From: Planctomycetota bacterium
Lineage (GTDB): Bacteria; Planctomycetota; UBA1135
Length of the DNA stretch: 64,000 bases
Assembly: GCA_008501825.1 (NCBI GenBank)
Contig: QQUA01000010.1
Location: 14,908 to 78,907, forward strand
Reading direction: 5' to 3'
Below the pieces are notes generated by a model. The model had not been told where the DNA came from and did not search any database. It worked only from the letters and a program-made list of their open reading frames with translations. A program made the translations under genes and the position numbers. Positions 11,095 through 23,344 of the stretch are shown piece after piece (the first letter of the stretch is position 1; each line of letters begins with the position of its first letter).

Positions 11095-11862
11095 CTAGTA
11101 CTTGCAACCGAGTTCCTGTTTCAGGTCGTCTCTGGATTTCGTCGGGTCGATATCTTTGATGTACTCGGCCCACAGCTCAGATCCGCTCCCACCGTTGAAC
11201 AAGTAGGCTGCTCCAGTCTTTAGACCGAGGCGACGGACAAAGTCCTTGCCACTGTCAGTGGCCTGATCCTCCATGACAACAAGGACTTGTTTCGAGGCTT
11301 GAAGGTCTACAACCTCCTCAACGAGCGTAGGTTGTCCGGTGAATCGGCCCTGTGAGTCGCCAAGGCCAAACTTCATCAGTCCTGTCCTGATGGAGTTGTT
11401 GGCGTAGTTGAAGACAACGGTCTCGACATCAAGCTCCCGCTCGATCTGCGTACATCCAAAGAGATTCGCGAGTGCGGGATTCGACAAGGAAAGATCAACT
11501 TGCTGCACTAAGGTAGCGTCGTCTCCGGACACATCGTAGGCGCCTCCGATGTCCAGCTTGCCGTTCAAGAGCCACGGCTCTTCAGGGTCGAGAATCGACC
11601 TCACAATCGTGATCCTCTCGTGACGATTGGCGTCCTCGTCTTGCTCTTGGTTCTCGTAGCGGTAGAGAGTGTGGCCATCAACAACCACGACCTCGTTCGC
11701 CTTGGCCTGGATCGGCTCAGGTTCTTCAGCGGGTTCCGGTTCCGGCTGCTCGGATGTCGTAGCAGCCTGGACTTGCTTGTCTTCCGACGTCTTTTCTGAG
11801 CAGCCAGTGCCAAGGACGCACAAGAGGAATAGAAGGGGAGCTGAGCGGAGCATGACGACCAC
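11095..11862 (-). CDS. Putative lipoprotein
   Basis: Signal peptide with lipobox-like LGTGC, followed by a Pro/Glu linker. Confidence 0.7.
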   Translation of the reverse strand: MVVMLRSAPLLFLLCVLGTGCSEKTSEDKQVQAATTSEQPEPEPAEEPEPIQAKANEVVVVDGHTLYRYENQEQDEDANRHERITIVRSILDPEEPWLLNGKLDIGGAYDVSGDDATLVQQVDLSLSNPALANLFGCTQIERELDVETVVFNYANNSIRTGLMKFGLGDSQGRFTGQPTLVEEVVDLQASKQVLVVMEDQATDSGKDFVRRLGLKTGAAYLFNGGSGSELWAEYIKDIDPTKSRDDLKQELGCKY

Positions 11863-12225
11863 CTAGAAGGTTACTTGGGAAGGTGCGATCACTGCGTGAT
11901 TGTAGCTGCGGGCCCATGAAGCGGCGAATTCTCTAGCCGGAGGTGCCCCAAGTCGAAGCGTGCCTGGCCTTCAACTTCGGGAAGAAGTGCCCGAGCGTAG
12001 CAAGGGATCGGTCCTGGAGATGTCCCCGCCATGACTCGGCGATCGCCCCGAACGCCAAGTAGCCGCCGACAGTACAATGGCACCGTGCGAATCCGCCCCT
12101 GGCACGTTCCAAGGCTCTAGGAGCTTCCAATGCGCGGGCCGGTCGGGTTCCATCGCGACAACCACGGTTGAGAGTGACCTGCACCCGGCTGCACCTTGTC
12201 ACATCCTGGGTCTGAGGGAGGAAAG

Positions 12226-21242: not shown

Positions 21243-21451
21243 CTGGATGCCTCTAGGGTCTCTATGGCAGGGCCTTGCGGAGCGGTTTCCAACAAGCAGT
21301 GAGTGGGGTTGAGAATCGATGCCCGGTAGTCAGGACAGCAACGGCACGCGACCAGCCGATGCCAGCCATGCTGTGCAACAGCCTGCTGCGTTCGGTCTTC
21401 GATGCCGAGCGACGGCCTACCGCGACATTGCATTGAGCCCATTGCCGCAGC

Positions 21452-23344
21452 TCAGCGATGCTCTCTTAGATAGGCAACGATTTGCATGCTCTCGTCTCTC
21501 TCGGCGAGAGAGATCGGATCCCAATCGCCCCAGAACTTCGCGGTCACCGATGCTCCGCCCGCGACAAGAGCCTTCACCGCCTCCAGTTCTCGATAGTGAA
21601 CTGCGACTCCCAGGGGAGTTATGTCGCTCCAATCCTGAACCATCGGATGGGCGTGTGGGAATCCAGTGTGGCTCTCGACGGGCAGGCCCTTCTCGAGCAG
21701 GTACTCGATTGTCCGACCATTCCCACGCATCGCTGCTGCGTGCAACAAAGACCCACCTCTTTGTGTCGAGTATTGCAGGTCCGCGCCCTTCTCGACCAAG
21801 TAGTCGATCATGTCCGGTCGGCCTGCGAACGCAGCAATCCAAACGGGCGTGGCCTTCACCGAGTTCAGCGCTCCGACTTCCCAGCTGCACTCAGCATCGA
21901 CTGATGCACCCTTGTCCAGCAGGTAACCGAGGACCTCGGTGTGACCGAAATACGCTGCGGCGTGGATGGGCTGACCTAGATCACTATCCATGTCAACTTT
22001 GGCGCCGTCCGCCACGAAGTACTCCGCCACATCGCTGGTGCTGGCGTAGTGGAGTGGCGATGCTTGCGGTGAACGATACTCCTCCTTCTCCACGTCCCAG
22101 TTCGCGCCGGCCTCAACGAGGGCCTTTACCAAGTCCAAGTTGCCTGACTGCGCAGCGAAGTGGATTGGTCTGGTCTGATAGCCGTCATCTGCGTTCACCG
22201 CAGCCCCGTGTTCGACCAAGAACGCGACCATTCCGGGCTGGTTGTAGTAGGCCGCCCAGTGCAGTGGAGTCCCCTTCTTCGCTGTCGGCGCTGGCGTGTG
22301 GTGAGTAAGGGACCCGCCTTCTCCCACTTTGATGAAGCTCGCCCTCTTCTCAACCTTCGCGTCGACCAGCCCGCCGTTCTCGAGAAGCAACTTCGCAACT
22401 TCGAGCGAACCTGATCGAGCTGCTAGGTGCATTGCGGTGGATTCGTCTTGCCCCCTTGCGTTCACGTCAGCGCCATTCTCAATAAGGTAGGCGGCGATAC
22501 GAGAGGCGTCAGTATCAGCTGCTAGGAGTAGAGGCGGCCACCAGAACGCTTCGAGGATGTCCCTATCAAGCGTGCTCGCGTCGATGGCCTTCAGGGCCTC
22601 TACGTCATCATTCTCGAACAGGGCAACGTATTCCTGCTTGGCCAGTTCACGAATGCGGTACTCGATCTCCTGCTTTCGGGAGGTCTTGGGGAACCTCTTC
22701 GCGAAAGCGGTGAGCTGTTCAGCTGAGCCTGATGAAATGGCGGTGCCCCACGCTAGATCTTCGATGCGCTGCTCGGCTTCGGTCCTGTGCTGCGTGTCAG
22801 GGTAGGAAGTGAGGAACTCCTCAAGCCGTTCGCCCGAATCTGAGGCAATTGCCTCATTCCATGCCAGTTCTTCGAGTCGTTCCCGAGCGGCTTCGACATG
22901 CCGCCCTCTTGGGAATCTCTCCAAGTAGGCATGAAGGGGTGAGGCTGCACCGGCCTTCGTGGCACTCTCCCACGTCAGGTTGTCGAGCAGCAGCTCCGCC
23001 TCCTCTGCGAAGTTTGCCTGAGGGTGGCTAGCGAGCAGAGCCTCTAGGGTCTCCGCGTCTGGGGCCTTGCTAGCAGCGTGCCACCGCAGTTCGCCCAAGC
23101 GGGCAGTGGCAGCAGCAGCTCGAGCATGCTCTGGGTGCTTCGTCAGGACTTCCACGAAGCTCTCGATCTCATCCGTCTCGAACGCGGCCTCGTACTCCGC
23201 GTCGGGGTTGCTGCAGCCGGAGCATAGCAACAAGGATGCGCAGGCGATGGACATCACGAGGCCGCGGATGCGGACACCGAGACCGAGCTCGAGCGAGCTA
23301 CTTTTTTGGCGAGCGGGCTTGGCGAGAACTTGCGTCTTGCTCAT
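21452..23344 (-). CDS. Ankyrin-repeat lipoprotein with five N-terminal 37-aa repeats (start may be 23254)
   Basis: Lipobox LCSGC; multiple TPLHxAA…GADVN ankyrin repeats. Confidence 0.88.
   Translation of the reverse strand: MSKTQVLAKPARQKSSSLELGLGVRIRGLVMSIACASLLLCSGCSNPDAEYEAAFETDEIESFVEVLTKHPEHARAAAATARLGELRWHAASKAPDAETLEALLASHPQANFAEEAELLLDNLTWESATKAGAASPLHAYLERFPRGRHVEAARERLEELAWNEAIASDSGERLEEFLTSYPDTQHRTEAEQRIEDLAWGTAISSGSAEQLTAFAKRFPKTSRKQEIEYRIRELAKQEYVALFENDDVEALKAIDASTLDRDILEAFWWPPLLLAADTDASRIAAYLIENGADVNARGQDESTAMHLAARSGSLEVAKLLLENGGLVDAKVEKRASFIKVGEGGSLTHHTPAPTAKKGTPLHWAAYYNQPGMVAFLVEHGAAVNADDGYQTRPIHFAAQSGNLDLVKALVEAGANWDVEKEEYRSPQASPLHYASTSDVAEYFVADGAKVDMDSDLGQPIHAAAYFGHTEVLGYLLDKGASVDAECSWEVGALNSVKATPVWIAAFAGRPDMIDYLVEKGADLQYSTQRGGSLLHAAAMRGNGRTIEYLLEKGLPVESHTGFPHAHPMVQDWSDITPLGVAVHYRELEAVKALVAGGASVTAKFWGDWDPISLAERDESMQIVAYLREHR

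Follow-up and report, generated by a model that had tools for sequence, protein, structure and literature searches.

The locus described here lies at positions 11095–23344 of a 64,000-nt stretch of contig QQUA01000010.1 from a Planctomycetota bacterium, and this whole stretch is referred to below as the window. The locus holds eight open reading frames (ORFs), named A to H (Table 1), which read together as an envelope module: a channel protein of the MotA/TolQ/ExbB type (B), two putative axle proteins (D and E), a tetratricopeptide repeat (TPR) protein (G), a long protein with a signal peptide and DUF1598-like domains (F), two further repeat proteins (C and H), and a small divergent ORF (A). 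B, C, D, and E form a tight operon on the plus strand, with gaps of 18 nt between B and C and 8 nt between C and D and an overlap of 4 nt between D and E. This operon converges on F, 38 nt away on the minus strand, and G is translationally coupled to F through a 4-nt overlap. An earlier note on this DNA, made from its letters and ORFs, had described B-C-D-E as an operon facing F, G, and H with A divergent, and the ORF listing bears this out in both coordinates and strands. Since B, C, D, E, F, G, and H each have strong homologues elsewhere, they are real genes rather than chance ORFs.

Table 1. Positions in the window of the module genes and of other features named in the text
Feature	Positions	Strand	Remarks
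B	12226..13809	+	ATG start at 12226, 527 aa; longest ORF from 12196
C	13827..14918	+	ORF listing
D	14926..15462	+	ORF listing
E	15459..16139	+	ORF listing; probable GTG start at 15459
F	16177..19707	-	ORF listing; 1,176 aa
G	19704..21242	-	ORF listing; 4-nt overlap with F
H	21452..23344	-	ORF listing; upstream of G
A	11095..11862	-	255-aa ORF, divergent from B
Tyrosine integrase	7316..8680	+	Pfam; longest ORF
ParB-HTH protein	9101..10072	+	Pfam
RadC/JAB + DUF2958 fusion	6034..7539	-	Pfam
HEPN_Swt1/DUF499 protein	3..3359	+	Pfam; open-ended, 1,118 aa

B is a channel protein of the TolQ/ExbB family with a modeled fold that resembles TolQ. It matches PF01618 (MotA/TolQ/ExbB) over residues 178–294 with 43.4 bits against a cut-off of 22.9, a match also recovered by a scan of the whole genome, and its approximately 30 full-length homologues (30–45% identity) are named ExbB or TolQ where the source gives any name. 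The protein comprises a basic N-terminal extension, an extra membrane helix, a TolQ-like three-helix core, and a cytoplasmic helical tail of about 230 aa that ends in a conserved motif; because there is one hydrophobic helix more than in TolQ, the basic extension is predicted to lie in the cytoplasm. In an AlphaFold model built from a 23-sequence alignment, the core has a predicted local distance difference test score (pLDDT) above 90, and past residue 300 the chain is modeled as four helices with pLDDT of about 60–68. These helices extend to residue 494, in agreement with the tail of more than 200 aa that had been read from the sequence. When the model was searched with Foldseek, TolQ ranked first (9kq0_A, E-value 1.9e-3; 9avi_A, TMt 0.75 with a root-mean-square deviation of 3.8 over 230 columns), ahead of ExbB (TMt approximately 0.55), MotA (0.41), and ZorA (0.40); the probability was 1.00 for TolQ and ExbB chains, and no row reached an E-value of 0.001 or less, the best being 1.9e-3. 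The earlier note had compared B with a tailed MotA such as ZorA; its core is closest to TolQ rather than to ZorA or MotA. The rows obtained for B with NCBIfam (TolQ, ExbB, and ZorA) were all far below threshold, with 13.1 bits for antiphage_ZorA_4 against a cut-off of 500, and the PADLOC match to ZorA2 was partial and weak (33.5 bits, 5.7e-9).

Both channel helices of B contain Thr and Gly residues that are invariant across 23 homologues. T213 is conserved in at least 90% of sequences, and T246 and T256 are invariant; we take these three to be equivalent to the channel threonines of TolQ and ExbB. Invariant Thr and Gly residues in the channel helices are expected of a working ion path according to the TolQ/ExbB literature. 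In most loci that carry F, B is shorter, at about 330–470 aa. Several variations on B were also observed. The homologues in three loci (L013, L018, and L025) begin with a Cys-rich, zinc-ribbon-like N-terminus, and in a further locus a separate zinc-ribbon protein is encoded between B and G (L030, 4389–4934). In L018, B is split into two ORFs (1845–3681), which may reflect a frameshift, a pseudogene, or an assembly error.

D and E are paralogous (hhalign 93.7%, E-value 1.9e-7), and each consists of a short basic N-terminus, a single membrane helix, and an alpha/beta domain (pLDDT 84.5 for the structure model of E). In E, a Pro marks the start of the helix and Asp21 follows three positions further on (P-x-x-D). 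The spacing is identical to that of three canonical ExbDs of the host genome, and all 37 distant members have this Asp. In D, the corresponding position is occupied by Ser or Ala. D proteins of the tailed subfamily place an Asp three residues ahead of the Pro, and 40 D-type sequences from the wider family show no conserved acidic residue around the membrane helix. With the Asp present in E only, the axle would be asymmetric. Complex prediction supports a D-E heterodimer, with 0.72 for D plus E compared to 0.45 for the best control. Among solved complexes, 58 of 80 attained this mark, as did 2 of 110 mismatched pairs. The three runs share no less than 73% of their contacts, and the pLDDT of the partner is 78 or higher. 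The contact surface predicted for the pair coincides with the invariant motifs at the C-termini of the two families.

Neither D nor E matches any model in Pfam, NCBIfam, or PADLOC, none of the 37 members of the E family matches any Pfam family, and a genome scan with PF02472 recovered four other host genes and not these two. They are thus termed TolR-like by architecture and context and not as family members; the description of the pair as ExbD/TolR-like holds for architecture and paralogy but finds no counterpart among the family models. A Foldseek search of the E model against the PDB returned no match at an E-value of 0.001 or less, with unrelated best rows, and the top fold match of its periplasmic domain was TolR, weakly. 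Profiles of D, E, and F searched against PDB sequences yielded chance-level rows only, such as the ExbD membrane helix for D at an E-value of 1.1, and Atlas placed D among unnamed clusters, with ExbD as a lead at 0.76 (leads being below 0.9). The E family is large: 2135, 843, and 114 clusters at E-values of at most 1e-3, 1e-10, and 1e-30, respectively, counted as clusters at 50% identity among 1.84 billion representatives. All 105 relatives of E with source names are called 'hypothetical' and carry no Pfam domain. Periplasmic coiled coils are present in the D and E of most F loci. In the database, E is given as 208 aa with an internal Met as its start (window positions 15459–15512 are affected); the basic N-terminus is conserved in 16 homologues, which argues for the GTG at 15459, overlapping the stop codon of D, as the start. 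In one related locus, D is split into two overlapping frames (L022, 6614–7244), which may be a frameshift, a pseudogene, or an assembly error.

F carries a signal peptide followed by two DUF1598-like domains (at about 68–340 and 455–715); beyond a linker come two repeats, each about 100 aa long, and the chain closes with a short YD-like segment. The two DUF1598-like domains are homologous to each other (hhalign 99.7%, E-value 3e-26), as are the two C-terminal repeats (99.8%). The earlier reading of F as a double-DUF1598/YD protein thus stands with respect to the duplication, but the window copy itself remains below the Pfam cut-offs, with 17.8 against 25 bits for DUF1598 (PF07643) and 14.3 against 22 bits for RHS_repeat. 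DUF1598 is matched at an E-value of at most 0.01 in 22 of 24 F homologues (best, 2e-7), RHS_repeat in one of 24, and DUF6531 in four of 24, and Atlas gives RHS-type leads at 0.84 (under 0.9). No toxin or enzymatic domain was detected in a Pfam scan of F and the 24 homologues, and no sequence relative with a solved structure was found. A total of 118 F homologues of about 1,100–1,200 aa are known, all of them hypothetical. Three neighboring stretches in another genome of this phylum match the F profile; one of them has an in-frame TGA, and they may be tandem or partly broken copies (G226:C111:4016-11116). G has a lipoprotein-like N-terminus and a TPR match (1.5e-12), and across 67 sequences its conservation is concentrated in the N-terminal TPR part and in a short aromatic motif at the C-terminus, with variable sequence in between. 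The TPR label for G and the ankyrin label for H were both recovered in Pfam; lipoprotein calls throughout the module are putative and were read from the N-termini.

The association of these genes was examined by three rounds of profile search in 18 genome loci, found with the B alignment, and in 71 F-bearing loci from metagenomes. In 15 of the 18 genome loci, B, D, and E are direct neighbors; two of the other three end at a contig end, and in the third (L011) D and E lie outside the retrieved stretch and are present in its metagenome twin (L029). The 18 loci span Cloacimonadota, Acidobacteriota, a Clostridia-labelled metagenome-assembled genome (MAG), Gamma- and Betaproteobacteria, Pirellulales, and a deltaproteobacterium. 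The usual gene order in the F loci is B-D-E-G-F on one strand. Linkage to F was counted in the 32 loci with at least 6 kb before F, and by a strict count B, D/E, and G are all present in 24 of these. Hand reading of the eight exceptions found all three in L029, L043, L051, and L089, the motor without G in L088, and no motor in the retrieved DNA of L042, L072, and L076. The corrected totals are therefore 29 of 32 for the motor (B plus D/E) and 28 of 32 for the motor with G, and G directly precedes F in 45 of 47 loci. The full set of B, C, D, E, F, G, and H recurs in L029 (equivalent to L011) and L089, and L030, L043, and L068 have all but one of the seven. The conserved core thus consists of five genes, B, D, E, G, and F. 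The proposal that the module travels as a unit is borne out for this core but not for the whole: A is no part of it, and the tailed B-D-E triad also occurs without F. One Bryobacterales contig (L023) carries two motor triads, at 286–2767 on the minus strand and 8076–11578 on the plus strand, one with a short B of about 280 aa and the other with a tailed B, and FHA-trypsin, PP2C-like, and kinase genes lie between them.

C and H are frequent, non-universal extras of the cassette. C is either anchored in the membrane or secreted, and it contains two BamD/YbgF-like helical repeats (weak TIGR03302 match in NCBIfam, 5.4e-6, below cut-off) and a C-terminal domain without an assigned fold. H has a lipoprotein-like N-terminus, five BamD/YbgF-like helical repeats (weak TIGR02795 match in NCBIfam, 3.2e-6), and then ankyrin repeats (Ank, 1.3e-50 in Pfam; ankyrin models also match in PADLOC). 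Profile cross-hits indicate that the helical repeat is common to C and the N-terminus of H. Genes resembling C are found in L011/L029, L030, L031, L045, L047, L064, L068, and L089, and genes resembling H in L011/L029, L043, L045, L089, L015, L042, and L076. A has a signal or lipoprotein-like N-terminus and matches no family in Pfam, NCBIfam, or PADLOC. Three rounds of profile search gave no relative of A in the 89 loci, and it is hence no more than a candidate gene and a candidate member of the system.

Beyond the cassette, all-against-all clustering of ORFs from 90 loci gave no further family in more than six loci. In a Pfam tally of neighboring genes, FHA was found in 10, VWA in five, and PP2C in four of 148 smaller neighbors, and TPR in five, CHAT in four, and HEAT in two of 26 larger ones, among which there were also single matches to SpvB (1.3e-111) and FtsK_SpoIIIE (3.8e-74). 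TonB_C, TonB_dep_Rec, Plug, and OmpA are not among the 25 commonest families of either set, a ranking below which single occurrences may fall; the homologues therefore do not routinely keep company with TonB or receptor genes. Tailed triads are flanked by genes for kinase-FGE-sulfatase (L015, L023), kinase-TPR (L014), FHA-trypsin (L023), TIR-FGE-sulfatase (L017, L022), CHAT-TIR-FGE-sulfatase (L025), and TPR-CHAT (L013) proteins, and PP2C, VWA-FHA, FHA, FHA-trypsin, TPR-CHAT, and ECF sigma genes occur around the B-D-E-G-F cassettes. By analogy with Zorya, such signaling and death domains around the relatives suggest trans-envelope sensing or signaling.

The module lies in what is likely an acquired island, as indicated by the tyrosine integrase, the ParB-HTH protein, and a drop in GC content from 0.66–0.68 to 0.56–0.62 over 8–26 kb of the window, with both genes at this transition. 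A search for flanking att direct repeats gave only short imperfect pairs, taken for chance, and no tRNA genes were found in the window, so the ends of the island are not delimited. The mobility claimed by the earlier note accordingly finds partial support, from the integrase, the ParB-HTH gene, the lower GC content, and the failure to find a B orthologue in 40 relatives, but none from att repeats or a tRNA gene. The window also gave no Rfam family, and a promoter and terminator scan returned no promoters and nine terminator-like sites against 9.2 expected. Downstream of the module lie a sulfatase gene and an H+-pyrophosphatase gene (Pfam). The intervening stretch between H and the sulfatase gene (23422–24648) holds only Arg-rich or overlapping ORFs, apparently in wrong frames, and could contain an island edge. 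On the other side, the RadC/JAB-DUF2958 ORF overlaps the longest integrase ORF, the real start of which is probably further downstream. Upstream of the island, the 1,118-aa protein at the edge of the window combines an N-terminal Swt1-like HEPN domain (7.3e-37) with DUF499 (1e-25) and has a defense-type look.

The host is a MAG of 5.7 Mb, 84% complete, and the window is contained in four DNA sequencing runs from two studies, two of which runs may be its source, with no RNA run listed. Genome scans found three ordinary ExbB/ExbD sets elsewhere in this genome, one of which (at C22) has the layout ExbB-ExbD-ExbD, and a single copy of F. In a sample of 300 further genomes from the phylum, two have full-length F and another three a partial match to the N-domain. 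Given the three ordinary host sets, the absence of B from the 40 relatives, and the rarity of F, the motor of the module is an extra set and not the housekeeping one. Searches of 72,556 plasmid records with tblastn gave no match to B or F.

On balance, we favor the view that the cassette encodes an undescribed proton-driven motor of the TolQR type that has an asymmetric axle, is linked to a complex of TPR and DUF1598 proteins in the periplasm, and probably serves in envelope surveillance or force transduction. Five B subunits would form an inner-membrane proton channel ring around one D and one E (i.e., a 5:1:1 stoichiometry), in which E would carry the proton-accepting Asp and D would not. 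The periplasmic domains of D and E would pair through their most conserved motifs and join the motor to G and F, which together with C and H would make up a complex in the periplasm or outer membrane; proton flow would then pull on the G-F complex or read its state. The tail and N-terminal extension of B may relay that state to cytoplasmic partners, which in other genomes could be the FHA, PP2C, kinase, TIR, and CHAT proteins. This company elsewhere is what makes envelope surveillance or force transduction, rather than nutrient import, the likeliest role.

Several observations weigh against this interpretation. D and E are not tied to ExbD/TolR by sequence comparison: against the three host ExbDs, hhalign gives E 37.6% over 22 columns, or 8.7% with a deeper E alignment, and D 0.5%, and the alignment, built on three ExbDs only, covers the N-terminal motif alone. 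The D-E prediction does not by itself make the heterodimer the preferred pairing over D2 or E2, and rotation might fail altogether if the axle has a single Asp. The tail of B is modeled at low confidence, as four helices and not as one long coil, and the fold of F remains without any assignment. Many of the 71 F loci are near-duplicates and therefore do not represent 71 independent events. F was not found in four of the five searched genomes with a tailed triad, and coupling to F and G would thus be optional. No FHA, kinase, TIR, or CHAT gene lies beside the module in the window. Finally, Acidobacteriota and Planctomycetota probably have many kinase-FGE-sulfatase genes, so some of their adjacencies to triads may be due to chance.

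The cassette does not show the features that were tested as defining Zorya, Ton, and Tol-Pal, and its resemblances to these and other motors are each partial. Tol-Pal comes nearest, in that TolQ has the closest fold to B, the axles are single-pass proteins, Asp of E occupies the P-x-x-D position as in TolR, and a TPR protein is an operon partner; ExbB-ExbD-TonB shares the PF01618 channel and the combination of one channel gene with two axle genes, and makes a role in energizing across the envelope plausible. The module could accordingly be an ordinary extra Ton/Tol paralogue (ExbB-ExbD1-ExbD2 or TolQR) that energizes a receptor or Pal-like partner encoded elsewhere, as its fold, its PF01618 match, the known ExbB-ExbD-ExbD layout (also that of the host set at C22), and the resemblance of the TPR protein to CpoB/YbgF of the tol-pal operon (with the weak TIGR02795 match of H) would allow. 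We regard this as highly improbable, however: Pfam and NCBIfam found no TolA, TolB, or Pal domain in the locus, Pfam found no TonB, TonB receptor, OmpA/PGBD, or flagellar domain in the eight module proteins (as the earlier note had stated), and no TonB, TolA, TolB, Pal, or receptor recurs among the 174 tallied neighbors. Moreover, D and E fail PF02472, which the four true ExbDs of the host pass, the two axle genes differ from each other and D lacks the Asp, B has an additional N-terminal membrane helix and tail compared to TolQ, the partners are G and F, and the host already has three canonical ExbB/ExbD sets. A similarly slight chance attaches to an AglRQS-like motor for surface transport or gliding, which would move F or another adhesin along the envelope. 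Myxococcus AglRQS combines one TolQ-like and two TolR-like genes with TPR-rich envelope partners, and this 1+2 layout is the basis of the likeness, along with the periplasmic coiled coils of D' and E' in the broader family; yet no Glt-like gene set recurs, one axle lacks the Asp, and the cassette is sporadic and acquired-looking in very different phyla. An anti-phage system of the Zorya type, in which a tailed channel would detect envelope damage caused by phage and, through rotation of its tail, recruit cytoplasmic effectors, is also improbable, if less so. Zorya pairs a 5:2 motor with variable effectors and senses and signals across the envelope (PMC11946911). The module recalls this in the helical cytoplasmic tail of B and its PADLOC match to ZorA2, in its variable partner genes, in its sporadic distribution among relatives and its position beside an integrase and near the HEPN_Swt1/DUF499 gene, and in the TIR and CHAT proteins that flank related triads. 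PADLOC, on the other hand, returned nothing for the module beyond this weak ZorA2 match and the ankyrin models for H, with no ZorC, ZorD, ZorE, or ZorF/G, and there is no ZorB-type peptidoglycan-binding domain and a two-protein axle instead. Profile scores lie far below their cut-offs (13 bits against 500 for ZorA_4), the fold is closer to TolQ than to ZorA (TMt 0.75 versus 0.40), the tail of about 230 aa, modeled as a monomer with four helices, is less than half as long as the approximately 500 aa of E. coli ZorA, all accessory proteins in the window have N-termini that place them outside the cytoplasm, and B and F have no match on plasmids (phage records being outside that search).

Two further explanations differ in what the motor would do. 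F might be the object of a dedicated assembly, export, or anchoring machine, in which the proton-motive force would insert, extend, retain, or release F as a YD-tailed, adhesin- or toxin-like surface protein, with G as a periplasmic chaperone or dock. The coupling of G to F, with G directly before F in 45 of 47 loci, the presence of the motor in 29 of 32 F loci, and the signal peptide and YD/DUF6531-like C-terminal repeats of F (DUF6531 in four of 24 homologues, RHS-type Atlas leads at 0.84) point in this direction. We nevertheless consider it unlikely, since tailed triads occur in the four of five genomes in which F was not found, the recurrent neighbors include no outer-membrane channel, secretin, or ABC/T1SS gene, and F has no detectable toxin or enzymatic domain and an RHS signal below every cut-off. 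Somewhat more credible, though still doubtful, is an envelope 'tripwire' of a new class serving in immunity or conflict: a lattice of G and F (with C and H) would restrain the D-E, single-Asp motor, and damage by a phage, predator, or toxin would free it, whereupon the tail and N-terminus of B would trigger FHA/kinase/PP2C signaling and CHAT/TIR death effectors. For the window, this would imply that the effectors are encoded elsewhere or that the output is purely periplasmic.

The proton-driven, asymmetric TolQR-type motor therefore remains the reading that we prefer, and as far as sequence analysis reaches, the interpretation offered by the earlier note is supported. None of the three outcomes that the note named as refuting it came about: the homologues co-occur, they do not routinely lie with TonB or receptor genes, Pfam, NCBIfam, and PADLOC yielded no described system that the module matches, and no published description of the cassette and no papers on DUF1598 were found in a search that left subscription journals largely outside. 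A survey of MotAB relatives notes non-flagellar homologues of unknown function, and nothing like the cassette appears in the available part of its text (PMC12505986).

The cassette, which is unnamed in the libraries, looks like a branch of the ion-driven 5:2 motors with an output still to be assigned. Motors of this kind power flagella, TonB-dependent import, Tol-Pal, gliding and type IX secretion, and Zorya defense, and each newly found output has reshaped views of how energy is used at the outer envelope. The present case adds a further branch with thousands of members, devoid of annotation and paired with a large protein family of unassigned function. Its single-Asp axle, if true, would test current models that involve two alternating Asp residues, and the FHA, PP2C, kinase, TIR, and CHAT proteins that recur around its relatives suggest that envelope mechanics may be tied, in a directly testable way, to bacterial signaling or immunity.

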